Positions 1 through 10,034 of a stretch of 16,508 bases of DNA are shown here, piece after piece. The DNA lies in contig QNBH01000067.1 of NCBI GenBank assembly GCA_003645645.1, positions 1 to 16,508 of the forward strand. Direction: 5' to 3'. The position numbers and the translations under genes are program-made. The notes under the pieces were generated by a model. That model had not been told where the DNA came from and searched no databases. It saw only the letters and a list, made by a program, of their open reading frames with translations. Position 1 is the first letter of the stretch; each line of letters starts with the position of its first letter. Origin of the DNA: Spirochaetota bacterium. Its GTDB lineage: Bacteria > Spirochaetota > Spirochaetia > SPDA01 > B32-G16.

Positions 1-1491
1 ATTTTGTCGGTTATCTTCGGAGGTGGAGATACCGAGAGAGAGAAGAAACGTTTACTGAAAGAAACGGCAAAATGGCTTAAAAAAGACAGACATAAGTTTT
101 ACAAACCAAAAGGTGGACAGGTCCAGCCTGCTCTGGCTCGTTTTTTCTATGAAATATATAAAGTGGTAGCTTCGGCACAGGTAATGCTGGAACATGCAAG
201 TGAATCCGGTGCTCTGAAAGCCATCATTATAGAAAGCTTCCTCAACGAAGAGCAGAGGCAAATAAGAGATCAACTTACCGAAGAAGCAATCAAAGCGCGG
301 GCACAGCAGGTTGATATTAAACAACTTACTTCCGAGCTTAAAGAAAAAATGATAAAATTTTTTTCAGACTTTGACAGCCAGAAGGTAAAGCAGATAAATG
401 AAACTTACAATTTACTCTCCATATTTCTCCAGATTATTAACTTCGACTACTACTTTTTATTGAAAAAGTTTGACTCAAATATACCTGAGAGAAACTTCTC
501 CTATTCACCCAGGTTCGAATCGACAAACGGAGAGTATGTTACCGATGATCTTAAGGATTTTCTTACTCTTCTTCCCCTTGTGAGAGAGGATCTTCGGTGG
601 GAAAAGTTGTTTGATATACTTAAAATCTACAAGGGACAGGATGTTGTCAGCCGAGAGAACTGGGATAAGATGTTAAAAATGTTTAAAGAGGTTAAAAAAT
701 CGGGAGTACTCTCCCAGATTGTAAAGCATATCGACAGAGATCCCTTTTATAAAATTGTATATTATCCGCCCAAGGAGAGAATCGTAGAGGATTATCTGTC
801 CAGGCTAAAGACCGGAGTGGAGTTAAACATTCAAAAAATACTGCAGGAGAGGAGAGCAAACAAAATTGAGATGCTTATTAAGAAGATCTTCGGCTCCACT
901 GCCCTGTCGAGAATGAAGTATTATACCGACAGGATGAACGCTTCTTTTGCCAAGAAAAAATTGTCGGGATATACCTATGTAGCACCCATGAACTACTTAA
1001 AGGCTTTTATGCTCGATTATGTAAAGAAAGATGTAAAGGAGATTACCGATGTTTTGCTTATAAGGGGTGACTGGTCTACAACTTTGATGTCCCAGCAGCT
1101 TTCGGAGGCATTCCACTCTCTCATGCAACTTTCCGATAGAATCATCCAGTTTGATGATAAGCTTGCCGATGAAGGTCAGCTTGGCTCAAGGGTAAAGAAT
1201 TACATTCATAAACCCGAGCGAGATACCAACAGTACTGTTGTTCTAAAGAAACTCCTGAGCGAGATAAATGAGGAAGCGCTGAAGATAATTCAGGAAGCGG
1301 TGAGAAATTTTATCTCGCTGGGAAAGACCCTTAAGCTCTGCATAGATGATTTTTCTCGACAGCATCATGAACTCATACTTAACTGGAAAGAGCTGGATAT
1401 GAACATAGAAGGAAATATAAAAGAGCGAATGACGGAAATATACAAGCAAATCTATTACTTCATTCAGCTAATCCAGCATTTTAATAAATGA
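1..1491 (+). CDS. Hypothetical protein, 5'-partial. The reading frame is open to the window edge; the track's TTG at position 4 is probably internal. It is K/E-rich and predicted helical, with no transmembrane segment and no recognisable catalytic motif.
   Basis: A 1488-nt frame with no in-frame stop back to nt 1, ending TGA at 1489-1491. Composition is protein-like throughout. I recognise no family. Confidence 0.6.
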   Translation: MLSVIFGGGDTEREKKRLLKETAKWLKKDRHKFYKPKGGQVQPALARFFYEIYKVVASAQVMLEHASESGALKAIIIESFLNEEQRQIRDQLTEEAIKARAQQVDIKQLTSELKEKMIKFFSDFDSQKVKQINETYNLLSIFLQIINFDYYFLLKKFDSNIPERNFSYSPRFESTNGEYVTDDLKDFLTLLPLVREDLRWEKLFDILKIYKGQDVVSRENWDKMLKMFKEVKKSGVLSQIVKHIDRDPFYKIVYYPPKERIVEDYLSRLKTGVELNIQKILQERRANKIEMLIKKIFGSTALSRMKYYTDRMNASFAKKKLSGYTYVAPMNYLKAFMLDYVKKDVKEITDVLLIRGDWSTTLMSQQLSEAFHSLMQLSDRIIQFDDKLADEGQLGSRVKNYIHKPERDTNSTVVLKKLLSEINEEALKIIQEAVRNFISLGKTLKLCIDDFSRQHHELILNWKELDMNIEGNIKERMTEIYKQIYYFIQLIQHFNK

Positions 1492-1521
1492 AACGGAAAT
1501 GGGGTAGAGGCTCCCTAAAAT

Positions 1522-1550
1522 TTGACAAAACATTTAACTCAAATTTAAGT
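1522..1550 (+). promoter_or_regulatory. Promoter-like element TTGACA-17-TTAAGT on the plus strand, pointing into the convergent intergenic gap and antisense to the operon's 3' end.
   Basis: The -35 hexamer is an exact consensus, but the -10 is weak (3/6). No ORF lies downstream. Confidence 0.2.
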
Positions 1551-1758
1551 GTCTCGAAGATTGCACCGGATGGGTTTCCTCACCATAATTATTGATCGCA
1601 CTTGATACAGGAACTCTTCTAAGACAGGTACTACTGTTGCCGCCGGATTTGCGCCCACAGTATTCCCTCAAGCCCAGGTTGAGCACTTTTATGCTATTTT
1701 CGGCCGGTTTCGGCGTGGCTCCAAAAGGCTTTCCTATGAGGGTACAATAGCATATATA

Positions 1759-2973
1759 TCAGTATTTAAATCTAAACCCAAGAGAAAATGCAAGACCCCC
1801 GGGCCTCTCCAGGCTAAAAATATCATTTTCTTCTCCTGCTTGAAGGAGAATGAAAGTAAGGATATCGAATCCCTGGTACATGTTCCAGGAGTTTCCGAGA
1901 AGAAACATCGCGGAGAGATCCACCGGAGATACTAAAGAGCGCAGGCTCAAGTTTATAGACCTGCTTAAGCCCAGGGTAATCTCCGGATAGAGAAACAGTG
2001 CATAATTTGCACCCTCCGGAGGAGGATAAACTGCGGTAGAATCCATTATTACAACTTCGTTTTTAATCTCTTCCCAGGTTCCCCACGGTCTCAGAAGAGC
2101 TTCCAGACGAAAGCTTATCTGAGAATCAATACCCAACCTCTGAAGGTGAAAAAGACCGGCACTTATAAGTAGAGAGTCCTTTAAATCTTCTCCTTCGGGC
2201 GATTGAGAGGGAATAGAAGTAGAGGCAGAAATATTCCAGTCGGCAAGCAGATGACCCTGGAGAGCTGCGTATATATTGTGTGTTTTTTCCTCTCCCCTGT
2301 AAAGGTATCCGCCTTCGGTCTTAATGGTAAACAATTTTGTTACCGCTCTTCCTCCTGCCTGGGTGTGCTCAATCGGGGGCAGGGAGTAGGCGGTTTTATC
2401 ATCTGTAATTGCTGCCAGGGGATCTGGGGGAATGAAGACAGCCTCCGCAAACGAGAATCTACCCATCGGGACGTAAAGAGAGGCCAGCCAGGCGGTTTCA
2501 TCCCTTATCACCTGTTCTGTCAGTTCCGTATCGATGGAAGTGCTTCCGAAAAGGAGATCTCCCGCGTTAAAGCAAGAACCATCTCCCCAGGAAACGCGGG
2601 TTTTTCCCAGAGTCGCCCTGAAATGGGGGAAACGCACTTTGATAAAGGCTCTGGGAAGGGTTATTGGGAGGGGTTGATCCTGATTGGGCAGAATTATAGC
2701 CTTAAGGGCGAGTTCGGCTCTTACATTCCTGTTGTTTTCCGCTTTAAGGGAGGCTTCTCCGGTTCCTGTTACGGAGAGACTGTAATCTTTTTCCCCAACT
2801 CTTATAAGAGACGGGAGAAGCATTATGTCTACAGAGGTGGAAGTTTCAGTATAAGCAGAGAACAAAACCATAGTTGAAAGAGTCAAGATGAAAAGGAAGC
2901 TTCTCCCTCCATGGAATTTTACTGGACACGTGGATATGCTGCTCCCGGTCAATCCGGCCTTCCTCTTTACCAT
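1759..2973 (-). CDS. Putative outer-membrane beta-barrel protein of unknown family, the last gene of the ABC/LolA-like operon.
   Basis: ATG at 2973 is preceded by GAGGGAG with a 5-nt spacer. A hydrophobic signal-like segment (FLFILTLSTMVLFSA) follows an unusually long n-region. The C-terminus ...LAFSLGFRFKY has alternating hydrophobic residues and a terminal aromatic, the classic OMP beta-signal. The start overlaps the stop of the upstream gene by 7 nt. Confidence 0.6.
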   Translation of the reverse strand: MVKRKAGLTGSSISTCPVKFHGGRSFLFILTLSTMVLFSAYTETSTSVDIMLLPSLIRVGEKDYSLSVTGTGEASLKAENNRNVRAELALKAIILPNQDQPLPITLPRAFIKVRFPHFRATLGKTRVSWGDGSCFNAGDLLFGSTSIDTELTEQVIRDETAWLASLYVPMGRFSFAEAVFIPPDPLAAITDDKTAYSLPPIEHTQAGGRAVTKLFTIKTEGGYLYRGEEKTHNIYAALQGHLLADWNISASTSIPSQSPEGEDLKDSLLISAGLFHLQRLGIDSQISFRLEALLRPWGTWEEIKNEVVIMDSTAVYPPPEGANYALFLYPEITLGLSRSINLSLRSLVSPVDLSAMFLLGNSWNMYQGFDILTFILLQAGEENDIFSLERPGGLAFSLGFRFKY

Positions 2974-3701
2974 GTGAGCTCCCTCAAGGAAAACTTTTCT
3001 TCCGGTATGGGAATTCCTATTTCTATTTTCTGAATTATAAACTCGGTGGAGGAGTTTTTCTTCATCTTATCCTCCATAAGCAGCTCCACCGGAATTACCT
3101 TTCCGTTTTGGCGGGTAAACCTGGTAATGCGCATCTCTTTCAGCAATCTGCCGGAGAGGCTGAACTTATGCACCTTACGATATATAAAAAGCTCTTTATC
3201 TACCCAGAGTATTTCTCTGGGATAGGGTACGTTTCTGCTGACTGCTTCCAACTGTAATTTATAACAATCATGCCCGTCCACCTCTTCTGAACCTAGAAGG
3301 GTGACTTTGTAGGAATCGAGAAGATCCTTCTCCCCGGTCATATCCTCGTAGGAGAAATCGGACCCCAGGACCGATTGTCTTAAGGCCGCTCCCTGGAGCC
3401 GTATTACCTCCTCGGCGTCGGGAAAGTAAAGGTAGAGCTCATCTTCATTGCGGAGTATCTTCTGTCCCGCCTCATATTTGCTCGTAAACTCGATGAGGGC
3501 ATTATCTTCACCCCTGGACCAGGAGACAAAGGTTACAGTTTTCTTACCGAACCTGTCCTGAATTATCATTTTCCCTTCGATACGGGCGGTATCATGAACC
3601 TGGTTTTCGAGCATTCTTTCTAATATCTCTTCGGGGGTAATTCCCATTAGGACAGCGGCTGGGCTAAAAAAGATAAATATTGAAATGAAAAGCTTTTTCA
3701 T
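2967..3701 (-). CDS. LolA-like secreted or periplasmic protein (outer-membrane lipoprotein-sorting-protein-like fold family). I moved the start to ATG 3701 (244 aa) instead of the track's 3758.
   Basis: ATG at 3699-3701 is preceded by GGAGG with a 7-nt spacer. The protein then begins MKKLFISIFIFFSPAAVLMG, a typical signal peptide. The track's extra 19 N-terminal residues have no RBS. Size and operon linkage to FtsX permeases and an ABC ATPase fit this family. Confidence 0.65.
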   Translation of the reverse strand: MKKLFISIFIFFSPAAVLMGITPEEILERMLENQVHDTARIEGKMIIQDRFGKKTVTFVSWSRGEDNALIEFTSKYEAGQKILRNEDELYLYFPDAEEVIRLQGAALRQSVLGSDFSYEDMTGEKDLLDSYKVTLLGSEEVDGHDCYKLQLEAVSRNVPYPREILWVDKELFIYRKVHKFSLSGRLLKEMRITRFTRQNGKVIPVELLMEDKMKKNSSTEFIIQKIEIGIPIPEEKFSLRELTW

Positions 3702-3767
3702 TTTTATTCCTCCAAGAATTTGCTTTATTTTGTATGCAAGTGCTTTGAAATAGGACATGGTGGCTCC

Positions 3768-5003
3768 TCACCCCGTGTATCTCAAGGCTTCCACCGGCTG
3801 TATTTTTGCCGCTCTGGTTGAAGGTATGAGTGAAGCCAGAGAGGAGACTACCACGGCATAGAAGAATACAAATATGGTGGAAAAGAGGTTTAACCTGGGA
3901 TAGATAATATCGGATATCTCAATATCTATACCCTGCATCGCTGCTCCGAAATCAAGGCCGTAAGCGGAGAGGGGAAGGGTTATGCCTACTCCCACAATCA
4001 GCCCCGCAAAGGCTCCTACGATACTTAAAAATACAGCTTCATAGAAAAAAAGACGCACAATTTCTTTTCCTGTCATTCCCATGGCGGCGATGGTACCGAT
4101 CTCCCTCATCCGTTCGAATATAACCATCATGGTGGTATTGATCAGCACGGTGCTGGCAAGAAGAAAAAAGATGAGTGCTATAAACCCGTAAATTACCTGG
4201 GCCATGCTCATGAAACCGTATATGATGCTTATGTTTTTCCAGCTCTGGACTTCCAGCTCGGTGTTTCCGCTGGTTTTAAACTCCCGGTTAAGTTCTTCTG
4301 CAAAACTGGCAGCTTCTCGTGGATTATTAAGCTTAACAAGTATTTCGGTAACCGACTTATCCATGCGGAGCAGGTATTGGACTCTGTCCAGGGGGATCAT
4401 CAGGTGAGTTTTATTGTAACTTCCGATCGGGAAAGCCGCTATTCCGGCGATTTTAAAGGTCATGGCGTTTATGCTTTTTCGCATTGTTGTGGCAAGAAGG
4501 GTGATTCTATCATCCACGCCAATTCCAAGTTCTTCGGCAAGCTTAAATCCTATAATAACCTCGTTGTTGCCGTTTTCAGGAAGCCTCCCTCTTATAATTA
4601 CAGATTCCAGATCCATAAATGAGACTTCGGTCGTGAAGTTAAGCCCAACCGCCATTGCACGGTGAAGTTCTTCTTCTCTGTATATGGTGGTGGGGAAGTT
4701 TATTCTTGCAGAAAAAGCCTCTACCCTCTGATCGGAAGAAAGCTCCGGGAGGATCTTTTCATAATCTGTTATCCTCAGATGAAGAGGGTTTAAGTGTTCG
4801 TATTTATTGTACTGGGCTTCTCTGATTCTAACATGACCGCTAACGTATGAGCTTATGTTTTTCTCCATATCCTCTTTCATTCCGCTTATCAGGGAGAACA
4901 TAAAGACAATGGCCATGGAGGCAATCGCTGTTGCAGAGGCGGACAGGGTGCTTCTTCTTTTATTACGCCGAATGTTCCTTAAGGCTATACGGGCAAGTTT
5001 CAT
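3768..5003 (-). CDS. ABC transporter permease, FtsX family (LolC/LolE-like: TM1, a ~230-aa periplasmic loop, then 3 TM).
   Basis: The N-terminus MKLARIALRNIRRNKRRS is the FtsX/LolE family signature start. One N-terminal TM plus three C-terminal TM segments (FIALIFFLLASTVLINTTMMVIFER...). AGGAGG lies upstream. An 11-nt gap separates it from the preceding permease. Confidence 0.85.
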   Translation of the reverse strand: MKLARIALRNIRRNKRRSTLSASATAIASMAIVFMFSLISGMKEDMEKNISSYVSGHVRIREAQYNKYEHLNPLHLRITDYEKILPELSSDQRVEAFSARINFPTTIYREEELHRAMAVGLNFTTEVSFMDLESVIIRGRLPENGNNEVIIGFKLAEELGIGVDDRITLLATTMRKSINAMTFKIAGIAAFPIGSYNKTHLMIPLDRVQYLLRMDKSVTEILVKLNNPREAASFAEELNREFKTSGNTELEVQSWKNISIIYGFMSMAQVIYGFIALIFFLLASTVLINTTMMVIFERMREIGTIAAMGMTGKEIVRLFFYEAVFLSIVGAFAGLIVGVGITLPLSAYGLDFGAAMQGIDIEISDIIYPRLNLFSTIFVFFYAVVVSSLASLIPSTRAAKIQPVEALRYTG

Positions 5004-5014
5004 GATTTTCCCTC

Positions 5015-6274
5015 CTATTCGTTGCGGAGACAGTCTGTAATTTGCATTTTTAAGGCTCTACGGGTTGGAATGTAGGCTATGAGCATGGAGATGACGATAC
5101 CCACTATAAAGGCAGTTATTACAACCTCGGGATTCCATACGGTGTACATGACACCTGTCAATCGATATCCCACATTCATGTTTTTGAAAATCCAGGAGTA
5201 GTCTATGCCTAAAGTTGAAAACAGATAAACAATGAGAGAGCCAAATATTGTGCCTGCAACCGATCCGATAAACCCGATTCCACCTGCTTCAAGAATAAAG
5301 GCTATCCGTATCTGGCTGTCTTTCATGCCCAGCGCCCTCATCATGCCCAGCTCCCTCACCCGCTCATATATGGCCATTAGCATGGTATTGGATACCCCTA
5401 CCGCTGCAATAATAAAAACCAGTAAAAGCATTATGTTACTGCCAGCTCTCTTTTGCACTGCAATGGCAAGGTAATCCTGGGCGAGATCCTTCCATGTTTT
5501 AGCCACCAGATTGTTTATTCCCTTCTCCTCAAGCCTTTCCTCTATGTGCTGGGCGGTCTTTTCCACATCGGCCTGGAGGGGAAGACTCATATCCATTTCG
5601 GTAACACCCCCTTCCATCTGAAGATAGTTGTTCGCGACATCCATGGGAATAAATATGGTTCCGTTATTGATCATGGGATTTGGGCAGTTAATGATACCAG
5701 CAATCTCCACATCGATAGTCTGGAAAAAACCGTCTCTTGTTCGGGTTACGATGGTAAGGGGATAACCGACTTCGGCTCCTATATCTTCGGCAAACCATGA
5801 GCCTATCATTATTTCCATTTTTCCGGATTTAAGATATTTCCCGGATTCCAGAGTTTGCTTCATAGGGAAGACCCTGTCATCCCGTTCGGGGTCGATGGCT
5901 ATAAACTGGACAGGCACCCCGCCGTCCTGCTCGTAGGGATCTTTATAAAATATAACCTCCCCTCCGAATCTTATTCTTGGAACTGCAGGTATATTCATCT
6001 CTTCTACCATCTTGATGACGACTTCAGGATTTTCGACAACCCTGTCCAGGGGAAGTCTCTCCTGTTCCTCCCAGTATTGTGAATCCATTATTCTTATCGA
6101 GCTGGTCTCATACCAGATAAGGTTTCTCTCCGAGTCGAGTTCCGCTCCCAGAAGCCACGCATCGAAGAAGATGTAAATCCCGATTCCCACGGCAATGGCC
6201 GAAGCAGTGATAATGGTACGTTTTCTGTATCTGGAAAGATTCTTCCATGCAAGAGAAATAAGAAACCTCATCAA
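5015..6274 (-). CDS. ABC transporter permease, FtsX family (second LolC/LolE-like paralogue).
   Basis: [20 protein letters not shown] begins the protein. It has the same architecture as the neighbouring permease. Its start overlaps the ATPase stop (ATGA). Confidence 0.85.
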   Translation of the reverse strand: MMRFLISLAWKNLSRYRKRTIITASAIAVGIGIYIFFDAWLLGAELDSERNLIWYETSSIRIMDSQYWEEQERLPLDRVVENPEVVIKMVEEMNIPAVPRIRFGGEVIFYKDPYEQDGGVPVQFIAIDPERDDRVFPMKQTLESGKYLKSGKMEIMIGSWFAEDIGAEVGYPLTIVTRTRDGFFQTIDVEIAGIINCPNPMINNGTIFIPMDVANNYLQMEGGVTEMDMSLPLQADVEKTAQHIEERLEEKGINNLVAKTWKDLAQDYLAIAVQKRAGSNIMLLLVFIIAAVGVSNTMLMAIYERVRELGMMRALGMKDSQIRIAFILEAGGIGFIGSVAGTIFGSLIVYLFSTLGIDYSWIFKNMNVGYRLTGVMYTVWNPEVVITAFIVGIVISMLIAYIPTRRALKMQITDCLRNE

Positions 6275-6951
6275 TTTCTCCTTTCATCTTTTGTTATCTG
6301 TCCATCGTGAAGTTGAACCAGCCTGTGGGCGAACTCCATTACCATCTGATCGTGGGTGGAGAAAATAAAGGTGGTAGTGTGTTTTTTGTTCATCTCTTCC
6401 ATAAGTTCGAGTATGGCTCGTCCGGTGTCGGAGTCGAGATTGGCAGTAGGTTCATCTGCCAGCACTATGGCAGGCTTTTTTACAAGCGCTCTGGCTATGG
6501 CTACACGCTGCTGCTGGCCACCTGAAAGACGAGATGGCAGGCGGTCCTCCATTCCCTCGAGGCCGACCTCTTTTAGAAGACTCATTGTACGTTCTTCTAT
6601 CTCATTTTTACTTAAGTTTAAAAGGTGAAGTGCAAAAGCTACATTTTCTTTAGCAGTCAGTACCGGAATCAGATTGAATGTCTGAAAAACAAATCCAAGT
6701 TTACGTCTGCGGAACAGGGCAAGTTCGTTTTTATCGAGTTTATCCACATCCTCTTTATCTATTTTGATTACTCCGGAATCCGCCTTATCGATACAACCTA
6801 TCAGGTTTAAAAGGGTTGTCTTTCCCGATCCTGAGGGTCCGGCAATGGAGAGGAACTCTCCCTGATCCACGTCCAGGGAAACGCCCCTCAGGGCTTTAAC
6901 TATTGTCTCACCAGCCTGATAATTTTTCTTTACCTCACGAAGGGTTATCAT
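6271..6951 (-). CDS. ABC transporter ATP-binding protein, LolD/MacB-NBD-like (226 aa from ATG 6951).
   Basis: Walker [13 protein letters not shown] signature [15 protein letters not shown], Walker B IVLADEPT and an H-loop STHD are all present. The track's start at 6978 puts an AGGAGG inside the coding sequence 9 nt upstream of the internal ATG at 6951, so 6951 is the likelier start. It overlaps the SPFH gene's 3' end by 17 nt. Confidence 0.9.
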
Positions 6952-8068
6952 TATCTTTTTCCTCCTTGCTTTTCTCACCCAGCTCGACGATCGAGTCTTC
7001 GCCGGCCGAAGCCTGCATTTTTTGCAGTGCCACAGCCCCTATTACAGTACCCAGATTCATTGTATCCAGAGCAGATGAAGGCAGAAGAACCATGGAGCCT
7101 CTCTGTCTTATACCTTCATAGACCATGTTCATTGCCCTGAGATGAAGGGCTGTAGGATTATCTTTATAACTCTCAGATGCTTCTGCAAACTTTTTCGCAA
7201 TTTCTACCTCTGCAGTACCCAGAATTACCCTGGATTGTTTCTCCCTCTCCGCCTGAGCTCGTTTGCTCATTGCATCTTCTAAGTTCTGGGGAATGATGAT
7301 GTCTGTAAACTCCACGGACAGGATGGTTATCCCCCAGGGATTTGTCTTCGCATCGAGTATCTTCTGAATCTCCTGACAGAGGATATCCCTATCCGATAGG
7401 AGAACGGAGAGATCGTGTTTACCGATAGAATCCCTCAACGCCGTCTGAGCAGAGAGGATTACTGCCTCCACGAAGTTCTCCACCTCCAGAATTGCCCGTT
7501 TGGCATCCCAGATCATCCAGAAACATAGAGCATCTACATGAACGGGAACGGTATCCTTTGTGATAGTCTTCTCTGCACTGAAATCGGTAGCCCGTATTCG
7601 TGTATCTACAAAATCTGCTACCCGGTCGATAATCGGGATTAGAAAAAACAATCCGGGACCACATACGCTTTTAAACTTTCCTGCTCTTAAGATAACTACT
7701 TTGTCCCACTGGTAGATGAGTTGAAGTGCAGGTGATAGAAGGAGACCCGGCGTGATCAATGCAAAGAGAGGAGCAAAATACCCGCCGAGAAATGCGTACA
7801 TCACAATCCAGGCTAAAACAATCAACTGTATTACCACACTCCAGAGAGGAAGGAGAGTCAATATACCACCGGCTGCGATTGTCCCTATAGCGATTCCAGC
7901 CAGGTGCATGGGCATGATTTCTTCCCTGATGGCAATTTGCAGGATTATACCACCTGCCAGGAACAGACCGAGGATAAAGTAGGAGAAGACATTGTAGCAG
8001 AAGTCCTTCTCTATCTCTATCCCGGGAATGTTTCTTATTCTTTCAAATTTCCGTCCGAATATTTTCAT
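6935..8068 (-). CDS. SPFH / band-7 (stomatin-like) protein with an N-terminal ~130-aa polytopic membrane extension.
   Basis: The stomatin core motif reads VVILRAGKFKSVCGPGLFFLIPIIDRVADFVDTRIRATDF...VHVDALCFW. It is followed by a coiled-coil-like region (SKRAQAEREKQSRVILGTAEVEIAKK). Three to four hydrophobic helices precede the SPFH domain. GAGGAGG lies upstream. Confidence 0.85.
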   Translation of the reverse strand: MKIFGRKFERIRNIPGIEIEKDFCYNVFSYFILGLFLAGGIILQIAIREEIMPMHLAGIAIGTIAAGGILTLLPLWSVVIQLIVLAWIVMYAFLGGYFAPLFALITPGLLLSPALQLIYQWDKVVILRAGKFKSVCGPGLFFLIPIIDRVADFVDTRIRATDFSAEKTITKDTVPVHVDALCFWMIWDAKRAILEVENFVEAVILSAQTALRDSIGKHDLSVLLSDRDILCQEIQKILDAKTNPWGITILSVEFTDIIIPQNLEDAMSKRAQAEREKQSRVILGTAEVEIAKKFAEASESYKDNPTALHLRAMNMVYEGIRQRGSMVLLPSSALDTMNLGTVIGAVALQKMQASAGEDSIVELGEKSKEEKDNDNPS

Positions 8069-8126
8069 CCTTTACCAATCCTCCTCTTTTCTTTTCTGGT
8101 TGTACAATACTCCAGATAGTAATCCC

Positions 8127-8546
8127 CTATTCCGCCCAGGAATCCTCCGCCCTATTCAGCTCTTCGAGGTATTCGATAATCTCCTCGAGGGAAAAACCGT
8201 AGGAGCGGGCTGAAGTAATGAAGGAGCGGCTGATTTCAGAAAGTATCTTCTCCCTCTCCACATCGGAGATCTCCATCTTCTTATCGCTTATAAAAGTTCC
8301 GGTACCCTGCTGGGTGGTTACAATGCCGCGGATTTCCAGCTCGTTATAGGCTCTGGCCACTGTGTTGGGGTTTATCTTTAAATCCACTGCAAGACTCCTT
8401 ACAGTGGGCAGTTGATCGCCTCTTACGAATCTTCCGTCCGCAATGGCCATCTCTACCTGGTGAATTATCTGCTTGTAGAAAGGGACACCGCTCTTTGGAT
8501 CCAGGGTAAACTCGATTTGTTTCTCTTCCTTGGCCATTGTTTCCAT
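8127..8546 (-). CDS. GntR-family transcriptional regulator, YtrA-like subfamily (139 aa with a short C-terminal domain).
   Basis: A winged HTH reads FYKQIIHQVEMAIADGRFVRGDQLPTVRSLAVDLKINPNTVARAYNELEIRGIVTTQQGTGTFIS. The short ~60-aa C-terminus is typical of YtrA-type regulators, which usually control adjacent ABC operons. Confidence 0.85.
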   Translation of the reverse strand: METMAKEEKQIEFTLDPKSGVPFYKQIIHQVEMAIADGRFVRGDQLPTVRSLAVDLKINPNTVARAYNELEIRGIVTTQQGTGTFISDKKMEISDVEREKILSEISRSFITSARSYGFSLEEIIEYLEELNRAEDSWAE

Positions 8547-8550
8547 AATA

Positions 8551-8597
8551 ATTGTATTAAAGTATTAATACAATAAAAGTTTAGTACATTAATACAT
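8551..8597. promoter_or_regulatory. Candidate GntR operator pair. Site 1 is a perfect 24-bp palindrome ATTGTATTAA-AGTA-TTAATACAAT (8551-8574) in the 5'UTR. Site 2 is GTACATTAATACAT (8584-8597), inside the promoter spacer.
   Basis: Read directly from the sequence. The heptamer GTATTAA/TTAATAC occurs four times in 45 bp. The arrangement GT-N-AC within AT-rich arms matches the general GntR-family operator style. Confidence 0.45.
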
Positions 8598-8606
8598 TTC
8601 TGTCAA
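8578..8606 (-). promoter_or_regulatory. Sigma-70-like promoter for the gntR-led operon: TTGACA (8601-8606), a 17-nt spacer, then TAAACT (8578-8583).
   Basis: The -35 hexamer is an exact consensus. The spacing and a -10 matching 4/6 place the transcription start about 30 nt upstream of the gntR ATG. Confidence 0.4.
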
Positions 8607-8608
8607 GC

Positions 8609-9448
8609 TCAATTGGATAAAAAAATCTGCAAAAGCGTGGATGCACCCAGAATTATGGTTACAATGCCAATAATTAATCTAAGATGGCGAATGGGTATTA
8701 TTTTAACCGTGTATGCCGAAAGAGGCGCGGAGGCTACCGCTCCGACCACCAGGTAAGGGGCAAGGGAAAGATCGATTTCTCCGGCAATAAAATAGGCGGT
8801 TATCCCGATAAAACAGGTTATTCCCTCGGAAAAAGAGGTTATTCCTACTGTACTTCTCTCCTCCACCCCGGAGAGTAGTTGGCCTCCGGTTACCAGCGGA
8901 CCGTAACCTCCTCCGCTTATCCCCTTATTAAAAGAAGCGAGGATACCCAGGCTTACTATCTTTTTCCAGGAGAAAGGAAACTTACGATTAGAGGTAACCA
9001 GCACGAAAACTCCCAGGACAAAAATCAGCACTCCGATATACAGTTTTACATATAGCTTTGGCAAGTTCAGGGCCGCATAAACGGAGACAAGGGTTCCAAG
9101 GATGCTACAGGAAATTATAACCAGGGCGATTTTAAGGTGAATGGGAACTCCTGTTCTGACGCTTTCCCTGATACCGTGTTCTTTTACTCTATTAAAGATA
9201 AAACCGGGATTCAACGATCTGGGCATGAGAGATACATTACCCACACGATGGTGGATAGCGGCTGCCGTAATTCCGGTGATTAATTCGGAGAGCAGCACCG
9301 CTGGTACGATCTGAAGGGGGGCAAATCCGAAGAGAAGCATCAGAATGGGCGTTAGAGTGGTTCCGTAGCCCATCCCGACTGTGGAGTCGATATACTCGGC
9401 TATAAAAGCAATTATCATTAAAAGTAGTACCGTTTCCCATGAGACCAT
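8609..9448 (-). CDS. TauE/SafE (TSUP) family sulfite/anion exporter-type permease.
   Basis: The two-repeat signature is VGMGYGTTLTPILMLL and ISGGGYGPLVTGGQLL (G-x-G-x-x-x-x-P-x-L). About 8 hydrophobic helices over 279 aa. GGAGG lies 7 nt before the ATG. Confidence 0.75.
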   Translation of the reverse strand: MVSWETVLLLMIIAFIAEYIDSTVGMGYGTTLTPILMLLFGFAPLQIVPAVLLSELITGITAAAIHHRVGNVSLMPRSLNPGFIFNRVKEHGIRESVRTGVPIHLKIALVIISCSILGTLVSVYAALNLPKLYVKLYIGVLIFVLGVFVLVTSNRKFPFSWKKIVSLGILASFNKGISGGGYGPLVTGGQLLSGVEERSTVGITSFSEGITCFIGITAYFIAGEIDLSLAPYLVVGAVASAPLSAYTVKIIPIRHLRLIIGIVTIILGASTLLQIFLSN

Positions 9449-9576: not shown

Positions 9577-9981
9577 CTATATGAGATCTGCAAAGGTTGT
9601 TCTTTCAAGCTTATCGGAGATATAGTCTCTGATTTCTTTTAGAAGACTGAGCAATTCAGGACTCCTTTCCACCGGGGTATGTTTGAAAAAGTACTTACTT
9701 ACAGATTCTACCGGAGCAAGTGCACCATCCATTAACCGGATTATTTCGGCTATCGATATATCTTCCGGTTTTTTCGCAAGTGTATACCCGCCTTCAGCCC
9801 CCTTGTAGCTGGTTACATATCCACCACGTTTTAAAATGAGAAGAATCTGCTCAAGATATTTTTTGGGAATATCCTTGTGCCGTGCAATCTCTGCTATTGT
9901 AAGCCGCGGATTCTTATGATAGTTTTCAGCAAGGTCGATAATTGCCAGACACGCGTATTCGCTTTTTGTTGATAGTCTCAT
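9577..9981 (-). CDS. Rrf2-family transcriptional regulator, of the CymR-like type that has no Fe-S cluster.
   Basis: MRLSTKSEYACLAIIDLA...LTIAEIA is the Rrf2 HTH signature. There is only one Cys (C11); the three C-terminal Cys ligands of IscR/NsrR are absent. Confidence 0.85.
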   Translation of the reverse strand: MRLSTKSEYACLAIIDLAENYHKNPRLTIAEIARHKDIPKKYLEQILLILKRGGYVTSYKGAEGGYTLAKKPEDISIAEIIRLMDGALAPVESVSKYFFKHTPVERSPELLSLLKEIRDYISDKLERTTFADLI

Positions 9982-10006: not shown

Positions 10007-10034
10007 ATTATAGCTTAATTCGCAAATCTGTCAA
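10007..10034 (-). promoter_or_regulatory. Consensus sigma-70 promoter for rrf2: TTGACA (10029-10034), a 16-nt spacer, then TATAAT (10007-12).
   Basis: Both hexamers are perfect consensus. They lie ~25 nt upstream of the rrf2 ATG. The inverted repeat CTATA-N5-TATAG (9999-10013) overlaps the -10 and the transcription start. Confidence 0.45.

Follow-up and report, generated by a model that had tools for sequence, protein, structure and literature searches.

A seven-gene operon on a spirochaete contig

The window analyzed here, by which we mean the whole stretch of DNA under study, is the complete 16,508-bp contig QNBH01000067.1 of a Spirochaetes metagenome-assembled genome (MAG). Between positions 1759 and 8546 it carries seven open reading frames (ORFs) on the minus strand, which encode, in this order, a GntR-type regulator, an SPFH protein, an ATP-binding cassette (ABC) ATPase, two FtsX-type permeases, a LolA-like protein and an outer-membrane beta-barrel. 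An earlier note on this DNA had pointed to the tight packing of these genes, and the ORF positions and junctions were found as claimed: neighboring genes overlap by 17, 4 and 7 nt or are separated by gaps of 58, 11 and 9 nt. The domains that had been proposed for the products (GntR, Band_7, ABC_tran, MacB_PCD plus FtsX in both permeases, and LolA_like PF17131) all scored above the Pfam cutoffs. The operon and its control region comprise the following features:

8578–8606, minus strand: sigma-70-like promoter, TTGACA (8606–8601), 17-nt spacer, TAAACT (8583–8578)
8553–8572, no strand assigned: predicted palindromic operator TGTATTAATACTTTAATACA, between the −10 hexamer and the gntR start
8127–8546, minus strand: YtrA-type GntR repressor, 139 amino acids (aa), PF00392
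6935–8068, minus strand: stomatin-type SPFH protein, 377 aa, PF01145
6271–6951, minus strand: ABC ATPase of the LolD/DevA/MacB nucleotide-binding domain (NBD) type, PF00005 (listed ORF 6271–6978)
5015–6274, minus strand: type-VII ABC permease 1, 419 aa, MacB_PCD and FtsX
3768–5003, minus strand: type-VII ABC permease 2, 411 aa, MacB_PCD and FtsX
2967–3758, minus strand: LolA_like periplasmic protein, PF17131 (likely start ATG 3701, 244 aa)
1759–2973, minus strand: outer-membrane beta-barrel of an unnamed family, 404 aa, AlphaFold2 model (NCBI DRP87_08025)

The view that these genes form a single co-regulated unit, in which a type-VII ABC extractor, a protein of the LolA superfamily and an outer-membrane beta-barrel stand behind a YtrA-type repressor, was borne out by the analyses described below.

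Conservation of the operon in Spirochaetota

One genome per species (185,579 species genomes) was scanned with an alignment of the barrel family, which gave 102 candidate stretches, and 80 loci were kept. All 80 belong to Spirochaetota, namely to Spirochaetales, Sphaerochaeta, Marispirochaeta, Oceanispirochaeta, Salinispira and, in one case, Treponemataceae. Synteny was counted by tblastn with the proteins of the window on those kept loci that had enough flanking DNA. The LolA-like gene lies directly upstream of the barrel gene in 72 of 72 loci, the core of ABC, FtsX, FtsX, LolA_like and barrel is complete in 58 of 58, and 44 of 54 have all seven genes in the same order. A chance adjacency, which had been considered beforehand as a possible undoing of the operon, is hence not what these loci display. 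Median identities across loci amount to 69% for the ATPase, 68% for GntR, 59% for the SPFH protein, 49% for the LolA-like protein, 47–48% for the permeases and 38% for the barrel. Cultured Sphaerochaeta isolates are among the carriers of the full operon, for example Sphaerochaeta halotolerans 4-11 and Sphaerochaeta sp. PS and S2 (loci L078, L061 and L065).

The ABC ATPase and its permeases

The ATPase (PF00005, 122.3 bits) possesses intact Walker A, signature, Walker B glutamate and H-loop motifs, as read from its translation; its listed start is GTG 6978 and its likely start ATG 6951. In NCBIfam it scores almost evenly against DevA (226 bits), LolD (222.4 bits), DarD (221 bits) and FtsE (219 bits), all below the cutoffs, and it misses the LolD equivalog TIGR02211, the cutoff of which is 307.75 bits. 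Each permease contains four transmembrane (TM) helices with a periplasmic domain of about 230–240 aa between TM1 and TM2 according to Pfam and a TM scan. Both permeases, together with a separate NBD that carries intact motifs, thus have the make-up of the type-VII (MacB/FtsX-fold) ABC superfamily. Searches against the PDB matched permease 1 to LolF (1.2e-14), YtrF (6.6e-14), LolE (6.6e-13) and MacB (1.5e-7), and permease 2 to LolF (5.5e-17), LolE (5.8e-15), LolC (1.9e-12) and MacB (1.5e-5). The lolCE model TIGR02212 (cutoff 362 bits) gave 96.6 bits for permease 1 and 152.9 bits for permease 2, the separate LolE and LolC models were far below their cutoffs, and the MacB model NF007826 gave 25–28 bits versus a cutoff of 966. 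Judged by these matches, the permeases are nearer to LolF, LolE and LolC than to MacB. Permease 2 is a paralogue of permease 1, and both would make up a heterodimeric pair in the style of LolC/E.

These scores bear on the possibility that the ABC genes encode a MacB-type tripartite efflux pump with an unlinked adaptor and a TolC-like duct, the LolA-like and barrel genes being unrelated passengers. The MacB_PCD domains are indeed present, and the DevA, MacB-NBD and DarD models give the ATPase roughly equal scores. However, MacB is a far weaker match than the Lol-type permeases, no gene for a membrane fusion protein (MFP) was found in or beside the operon in any locus examined, and LolA-like and barrel genes were never found apart from the pump genes (58/58). 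Neither an MFP (HlyD/MacA) nor a TolC-type gene occurs in the operon or in the locus neighborhoods that were read, though an unlinked partner is possible. Membership in a MacB/DevCA clade with an unlinked TolC partner, which the earlier note had named as the case that would speak against its proposal, is hence not supported, and we regard a pump of this kind, with the LolA-like and barrel genes as passengers, as extremely unlikely.

Many spirochaete versions of the operon contain a third FtsX-type permease paralogue, most like permease 1 and located either between the SPFH/ABC genes and the permease pair or directly downstream of the barrel gene (loci L027, L030, L033, L043, L046, L049, L053, L054, L058, L060, L063, L070, L072, L075, L076, L081, L082 and L084). 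It could represent an alternative permease subunit.

A LolA-like protein and an outer-membrane barrel of a new family

The LolA-like protein, for which we use the term carrier, matches PF17131 ('TP_0789-like') with 174.6 bits; the LolA family PF03548 is not among its listed matches, and Pfam returns a weak match to MucB_RseB. Its signal peptide has no lipobox cysteine, and its PDB relatives are 3buu (1.2e-18), 9tp6, 4z48 and 3bk5. Since homologues measure 244–255 aa and align from M20, the likely start is ATG 3701, which leaves a protein of 244 aa. Some close homologues show weak matches to DUF1329 (PF07044). The literature on TP0789 that we could find consists of one mention in a proteomics study. 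The carrier gene overlaps the barrel gene by the 7 nt given above.

For the 404-aa product of the last gene, no match was obtained in Pfam, NCBIfam or among PDB sequences, and a search of the PDB by profile was likewise empty. Homologues are nonetheless numerous enough for a family alignment: 126 were detectable at 90% clustering, and an exhaustive hidden Markov model (HMM) search gave 484 clusters when sequences were grouped at 50% identity. According to the alignment, the proteins begin with a cleavable signal peptide and end in an aromatic residue, and they share the very conserved signature RAfiKVRFPxFRlTLGKTRvSWGxGxxFNAGD, which is followed by a conserved loop of about 35 residues. AlphaFold2 models the protein from this alignment with 18 beta-strands at high confidence (predicted local distance difference test, pLDDT, 88.2; predicted template modelling score, pTM, 0.82), and Foldseek returns porin-type barrels only, at template modelling scores (TM-scores) of up to 0.54, with Occ and AlgE as neighbors. 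The assignment as an outer-membrane barrel, proposed in the earlier note from its C-terminus, is thereby confirmed at the level of a confident model and its structural neighbors, and the operon defines a new barrel family for which Pfam holds no model. The best homologue of the barrel is 48% identical, compared to 71% for the carrier, and the most conserved part of the barrel is the long loop after strand 5 and not the strands. The lower conservation of the barrel is what one would expect of a protein that is exposed at the surface and subject to diversifying pressure.

We further compared the family to described outer-membrane proteins. The barrel remains below the Pfam cutoff of Wzi PF14052 (30.1 bits), and the signature region produces sub-threshold Wzi matches in 23 of 49 members of the family as well as in the two proteins annotated as DUF1302, one from Haliovirga and one from Prevotella. 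PF06980, the DUF1302 model, does not match the barrel. When the barrel-family HMM was run against 164 ORFs, DUF1302 proteins ranked second and third, and in profile alignments of the family with DUF1302 only the 39 columns of the signature align (hhalign E 0.0025–0.0028, probability 11–12%). Distant homology of the barrel family to DUF1302 is likely, but not proven, and functional equivalence of both is better supported than membership in one family.

Repressor and operator

The promoter of the operon, TTGACA-17-TAAACT, agrees with the consensus at 10 of 12 positions in a consensus scan and is located in the 62-nt gap between the stop of an upstream TauE gene (8609) and the gntR ATG (8546). 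TTGACA and a −10 element of the type TAnAnT are found at the equivalent place in related loci. Between the −10 hexamer and the gntR ATG lies a perfect palindrome, ATTGTATTAA-TACT-TTAATACAAT (8551–8574), a 10-bp inverted repeat, and a second related site, TGTATTAATGTACTA (8582–8596), covers part of the promoter spacer and the −10 element. Across loci the element upstream of gntR follows the consensus TTGTACTA-N5-6-TAGTACAA, which can be summarized as TGTAyTA-N6-TArTACA. Using a strict pattern, TGTA[CT][TC]A-N5-9-T[AG][GA]TACA, counted within 160 nt upstream of gntR, we found the operator in 33 of 46 related loci and a single further occurrence of the pattern in 1.32 Mb; the variant TGTACTAATnnACCnGTACA is carried by most of the other loci, chiefly those of Sphaerochaeta. 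In the window, the palindromic operator is the sole match to the strict pattern.

The GntR protein consists of a winged helix-turn-helix (HTH) domain (PF00392, 63.6 bits, residues 24–86) and a C-terminal tail of about 50 aa, and it has no effector domain. In NCBIfam it comes closest to the Rv1152 and PmtR families, which are both of the YtrA type and both score below cutoff. A short HTH protein encoded in an ABC operon and accompanied by a palindrome at its own promoter, which it is predicted to bind, has the hallmarks of the YtrA subfamily, and the earlier designation as a YtrA-type repressor is in line with the 139-aa architecture, these matches and the conserved operator. Because of the architecture of the protein, its Rv1152/PmtR-type best matches and the position of the operator, the operon is probably autoregulated and repressor-gated.

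A stomatin-type protein that travels with the repressor

The SPFH protein matches PF01145 (Band 7) with 114.5 bits, above the Pfam cutoff, and contains three to four hydrophobic segments at its N-terminus in a hydropathy scan. Its best PDB sequence matches are PH stomatin 3bk6 (6.5e-37), human stomatin (~1e-35) and QmcA. Domain, N-terminal membrane anchor and closest relatives thus all place it among the stomatin-type SPFH proteins.

Its gene occurs together with gntR in 44 of 54 loci, both genes are missing in the other 10, and no locus has just one of them. The stomatin gene hence travels with the GntR gene and not with the transporter, and the scaffold role that the earlier note gave to its product is hypothetical. 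In eight of the ten loci that lack both, a TetR gene is detectable beside the operon; TetR control is typical of inducible efflux systems. A literature search for a GntR-SPFH-ABC operon or a linkage of GntR, stomatin and ABC genes gave no description.

A further MAG locus outside the 54 (L055, 1024–1906) contains a gntR gene that is 5′-truncated and runs into an abnormal ABC N-terminus; it has no SPFH gene, and a VapBC-like toxin-antitoxin pair is located immediately upstream. This points to a deletion in the operon or else to an error of assembly.

Related modules in other diderm bacteria

The earlier note had not recognized the combination of genes as a described system. As far as the exact seven-gene spirochaete operon is concerned this stands, since no description was found in the searchable literature; the underlying design is not new, as a LolA_like protein, a DUF1302-like barrel and an inner-membrane exporter together represent a recurrent and partly studied class, with examples in Fusobacteriota, Bacteroidota and Proteobacteria, and the Borrelia cluster BBJ23-29 (PMC13078400) is a published analogue. 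Prevotella nigrescens contains a cluster of the order TetR-ABC-ABC-MMPL-LolA_like-DUF1302, and the fusobacterium Haliovirga abyssi (Fusobacteriota) one of DUF1302-MMPL-LolA_like and a second of TetR-MMPL-LolA_like-ferredoxin-'hypothetical protein'. This hypothetical protein is the top hit among the 164 ORFs compared with the barrel-family HMM (31.4 bits, E 7.5e-10) and aligns to the family over 269 columns (hhalign probability 74%, E 2.7e-5), and is thus a relative of the barrel family of the window; the LolA_like protein of the same cluster is 27% identical to the carrier (E 2e-14). In Acinetobacter baumannii, A1S_0116 (L090, 3848–7498), annotated as 'RND transporter', is a 1216-aa fusion of an SRPBCC lipid-binding domain with MMPL and LolA_like domains and thus a Rosetta-stone protein that ties pump to carrier. 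It is directly followed by A1S_0117 (7495–8769), a DUF1302-like protein of 424 aa that is described as 'related to porins'. Both genes lie within A1S_0112-0119, the non-ribosomal peptide synthetase (NRPS) operon responsible for Ac-505, a secreted metabolite (PMC5376624). Like the operon, these MMPL clusters have a PF17131 carrier directly adjoining a barrel of 340–435 aa, and their TetR control is common to the spirochaete sub-clade without GntR; they differ in their MMPL engine (fused to carrier and SRPBCC in A. baumannii), in the lack of a stomatin and, in some cases, in their location within biosynthetic operons.

An ABC engine with the same partners is encoded on the Escherichia coli IncK2/Z plasmid NZ_CP060058.1 (L087), where ABC, FtsX and LolA_like genes are accompanied by that of a 399-aa protein, the C-terminus of which matches DUF1302-like barrels (hhalign probability 82%, E 1.1e-5). 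Further products encoded at 1–8726 of this locus are a ketosynthase, an N-acyl amino acid synthase similar to FeeM, a crotonase and a small tetratricopeptide repeat (TPR) protein with a weak TPR_Slam match. The cluster has the look of a mobile pathway for a lipid natural product that brings along an ABC-driven LolA_like/barrel exporter of its own. The closest non-spirochaete LolA_like protein in the plasmid collection, 33–35% identical, is found on pPP1 of Persicobacter psychrovividus (L005, 2057–7678) in the order TetR, 378-aa secreted protein, ABC, FtsX, FtsX, LolA_like; the 378-aa protein produced weak motif-level matches to the barrel families only and was not used as evidence. Judging from these gene sets, the LolA_like protein and the barrel form a conserved 'outer half', for which the inner-membrane engine is interchangeable and is either a pump of the MMPL/HAE3-RND (resistance-nodulation-division) type or an ABC-FtsX transporter. 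An interchangeable engine supports a shuttle or relay mechanism distinct from that of TolC-tunnel pumps.

Genetic evidence that such a system exports hydrophobic molecules, or confers tolerance to them, exists for AmeABCD of Castellaniella defragrans, which comprises a DUF1302 protein, a DUF1329 protein of the LolA superfamily, a COG4447 protein and an HAE3 RND pump; it is induced on monoterpenes, and when it is deleted the cells tolerate monoterpenes less well and accumulate more Nile Red (PMC6394551). In a published model, DUF1302 is likewise a barrel of 18 strands, its nearest structures being Occ and AlgE, and binding to the LolA-like partner DUF1329 is predicted with an interface pTM (ipTM) of 0.84 (PMC13499233). 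Genes homologous to these four are cofit in Shewanella, Kangiella and Pseudomonas, and export of cell-wall components has been proposed for them (10.1101/072470). AmeABCD and the DUF1302/DUF1329/BNR/HAE3-RND clusters of Pseudomonas and Shewanella thus share with the operon an 18-stranded barrel adjoining a LolA-superfamily protein and an exporter, the structural neighbors Occ and AlgE of this barrel, the lack of an MFP or TolC and inducible expression. They differ from it in several respects. The engine of AmeABCD is a proton-driven HAE3 RND pump, whereas that of the operon is an ATP-driven type-VII ABC transporter (one ABC and two FtsX proteins, no MMPL), and the operon has no counterpart of the COG4447/BNR protein. 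Its carrier is a short PF17131 protein (244 aa) instead of a DUF1329 protein of about 450 aa, its barrel (~370–400 aa, outside PF06980) is smaller than the 605-aa AmeA, and regulation is by YtrA and stomatin instead of LuxR/AraC.

To our knowledge, every described type-VII ABC transporter or HAE3/MMPL pump either acts outward or does not transport, which is difficult to reconcile with a role of the operon in the uptake or handling of hydrophobic nutrients. In that case a fatty ester, terpene or hydrocarbon would enter through the barrel and be carried inward by the LolA-like protein, and the ABC transporter would serve as receiver or quality-control pump. Such a role would be in keeping with the location of DUF1302/DUF1329 genes in catabolic islands and with their requirement in Pseudomonas putida for growth on Tween 20 and butyl stearate, a study that left their function open (10.1101/2020.07.04.188060; 10.1101/072470). 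Yet no catabolic genes are linked to the operon, the flanking genes vary among loci, and the AmeABCD data fit efflux, so that we consider uptake quite improbable.

A cluster closer to the operon in taxonomic terms is BBJ23-BBJ29 of the Borrelia burgdorferi plasmid lp38, for which a paper dated 2026 lists two TPR proteins, the Omp85-like BBJ25, an ABC ATPase, an FtsX protein, a LolA-like protein and BBJ29, and proposes that a non-polar ligand is delivered from the inner to the outer membrane (PMC13078400). In both systems, genes for an ABC ATPase, for an FtsX/MacB-like permease and for a LolA-like protein are directly followed by one more, which in Borrelia encodes BBJ29 (about 340 aa). The Borrelia cluster differs in having a single homodimeric permease, two TPR proteins and BBJ25, and it has neither GntR nor a stomatin. 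Its LolA-like protein BBJ28 is not significantly similar to the carrier (BLASTP E 0.096), and BBJ25 has no similarity to the barrel family. BBJ29 aligns to the barrel family in a collinear but not significant manner (E 0.6 as single sequence, 0.13 by profile-profile comparison with hhalign). It has only seven homologues, and its AlphaFold2 model (pLDDT 40.6) is too poor to judge. Homology of BBJ29 and the barrel is for these reasons not claimed. The BBJ29 gene (L086, lp38 22007–23008) lies directly after that of BBJ28, which is the position of the barrel gene in the operon, and BBJ29 contains a similar motif, FNKLFFNLSFNDFIFKLGRQNYYLGNG, at the equivalent N-terminal distance as well as a strand pattern in its N-terminal half that looks barrel-like. 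BBJ29 may hence be the cognate outer-membrane partner in the Borrelia cluster, instead of or beside BBJ25.

Comparison with the Lol and Ytr systems

In the earlier note the operon was described as a Lol-like module. It does share with LolCDE-LolA-LolB a transporter of the type-VII ABC class, a heterodimeric permease pair, the lack of an adaptor and, presumably, the transfer of cargo to a soluble protein of the LolA fold. In the Lol system, however, the acceptor is the lipoprotein LolB, whereas the operon has an 18-stranded barrel and a different carrier family and is an accessory, repressor-gated unit. Since all Lol equivalog models score below cutoff, the operon is not orthologous to the Lol system. 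A dedicated second Lol-type pathway is still conceivable, in which some of the lipoproteins would be extracted by the ABC transporter and chaperoned by the LolA-like protein, and the barrel, as a LolB replacement or in a Slam-like manner, would insert them or flip them to the spirochaete surface. It would accord with the nearest solved relatives of the permeases (LolF, LolE and LolC), with lolCE as their best NCBIfam model, with the LolC/LolE-like pairing, with the LolA-superfamily fold of the periplasmic protein and with the fact that spirochaetes have many surface lipoproteins and no LolB; the same idea has been proposed for Borrelia BBJ23-29 (PMC13078400). We nevertheless regard such a pathway as unlikely. 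The equivalog scores fall far short (lolCE 153 and 97 versus 362 bits, LolD 222 versus 308 bits), the carrier belongs to PF17131 and not to LolA PF03548, homologous pairs of LolA_like protein and barrel are run by MMPL/RND pumps in small-molecule contexts (PMC6394551), and a repressor-gated accessory operon that is represented by 102 candidate stretches in 185,579 species genomes is a poor fit to core sorting. The term 'Lol-like' in the sense of lipoprotein sorting is therefore not upheld.

The Bacillus subtilis operon ytrGABCDEF likewise begins with a short YtrA-type repressor and contains an ABC ATPase, an FtsX/MacB_PCD permease and a palindromic operator, and permease 1 is structurally close to YtrF. 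B. subtilis is a monoderm and its operon has no LolA-like protein, barrel or stomatin; the Ytr system is thought to act on the cell wall and not in transport. By analogy to it and to FtsEX, the operon could serve in mechanotransmission or signaling, with ATP hydrolysis reshaping periplasmic partners, the LolA-like protein acting, like RseB or GerS, as a lipid-sensing regulator of envelope remodelling and the barrel being a co-regulated porin. The regulator is indeed of the YtrA type, YtrF ranks among the best structural relatives of permease 1 (6.6e-14), and the carrier shows its weak MucB_RseB match. The YtrA operon of B. subtilis is reported to respond to inhibitors of the lipid-II cycle and to alter the cell wall (PMC12772383, PMC8060467), and GerS is reported as a LolA-like regulator (10.1101/2025.01.13.632879). 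However, a signaling function leaves unexplained why the LolA_like-barrel pair is invariant (72/72) and translationally coupled, and equally why this pair is used with MMPL pumps and why MMPL and LolA_like domains are fused, which renders it rather improbable in our view.

Proposed function of the operon

The reading that we favor, with a probability of roughly 55%, is that the operon encodes an inducible exporter by which a small hydrophobic molecule or a lipid leaves the inner membrane and reaches or crosses the outer one. The system is best filed as an ATP-driven variant, equipped with a stomatin and a YtrA-type repressor, of the LolA_like/DUF1302-like envelope exporters and not as a categorically new machine. 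In such an exporter, the repressor would leave its operator upon an envelope or lipophile signal and expression would be switched on. ATP hydrolysis would drive the periplasmic domains of the permeases, which would lift a hydrophobic or amphiphilic substrate from the outer leaflet of the inner membrane and hand it to the hydrophobic cavity of the LolA-like protein. The latter would dock on the barrel, or stay bound to it, and the barrel would release the cargo into or across the outer membrane. The stomatin would be an accessory that organizes or senses the membrane around the pump and not a core component of transport. Because the related modules occur in the contexts of terpene tolerance, an NRPS product, an acyl-amino-acid cluster and TetR control, a small hydrophobic molecule or lipid, such as a toxic lipophile, a surfactant or a membrane lipid, is the more likely cargo in comparison to a lipoprotein.

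Several points weigh against an exporter of this kind. No biosynthetic or catabolic genes are linked in the operon, and the link between its barrel and DUF1302 is one of fold, synteny and a 39-column motif only. Some type-VII ABC systems, for example FtsEX, do not transport. Proteins with the LolA fold can be regulators, as are RseB and GerS, and the LolA-like protein of the window itself has a weak match to MucB_RseB. Moreover, the function of DUF1302/DUF1329 proteins is disputed between export of cell-wall components (10.1101/072470) and a role as fatty-ester esterase or in uptake (10.1101/2020.07.04.188060).

A more elaborate version joins two ideas, that the YtrA repressor and the stomatin together constitute a sensor of the membrane state and that the route via ABC transporter, LolA_like protein and barrel carries an endogenous lipid or glycolipid outward. 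An inner membrane perturbed by a lipophile would then alter the assembly of the stomatin, whereby the repressor would be captured or released and the pump switched on, a logic similar to that of PspA/PspF with an SPFH protein as its building block. The lipid or glycolipid would be destined for the outer leaflet of the spirochaete outer membrane. This joint proposal is unlikely; if true, the route would be a third kind of lipid highway next to Lpt and Lol. Independently of it, the strict linkage of stomatin and repressor could reveal a function for a bacterial stomatin.

For the simpler exporter, the wider meaning lies in its class. Exporters consisting of a LolA-like protein and a DUF1302-like barrel are spread over many diderm phyla and are found in ESKAPE pathogens too, and we know of none whose barrel structure has been solved, whose cargo has been identified or whose mechanism has been defined. 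The operon shows that an ATP-powered, Lol-like type-VII ABC transporter can take the place of MMPL/RND pumps as the engine of the same outer half. Its sharply conserved operator offers an easy experimental handle on the inducing signal, and the hypothesis can be tested since cultured Sphaerochaeta isolates carry the full operon. The results further suggest a second look at the Borrelia BBJ cluster and at the Ac-505 operon of A. baumannii.

Genes flanking the operon

On the downstream side, a DUF5312 gene at 4–1491 on the plus strand (495 aa as listed) is convergent with the barrel gene. It is listed from a TTG at position 4, three bases inside the contig end, and its true start may be off the contig. 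We considered it as an eighth member of the operon and rejected this, because it adjoins the barrel gene in only 6 of 70 related loci, which indicates lineage synteny. The convergent genes are separated by a non-coding gap of 267 nt (1492–1758), in which a terminator scan found no convincing intrinsic candidate behind the barrel gene; when the window was scanned for Rfam families and tRNAs, neither was found.

Upstream of the operon, a gene for a TauE/SafE-type sulfite exporter (8609–9448) and one for an Rrf2 regulator similar to CymR/IscR (9577–9981) follow on the minus strand. Both were excluded as operon members, since this neighborhood is not conserved in other genomes and the operon's own promoter intervenes. 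The Rrf2 gene is preceded by a promoter that matches the consensus at 12 of 12 positions, TTGACA-16-TATAAT, at 10007–10034 on the minus strand.

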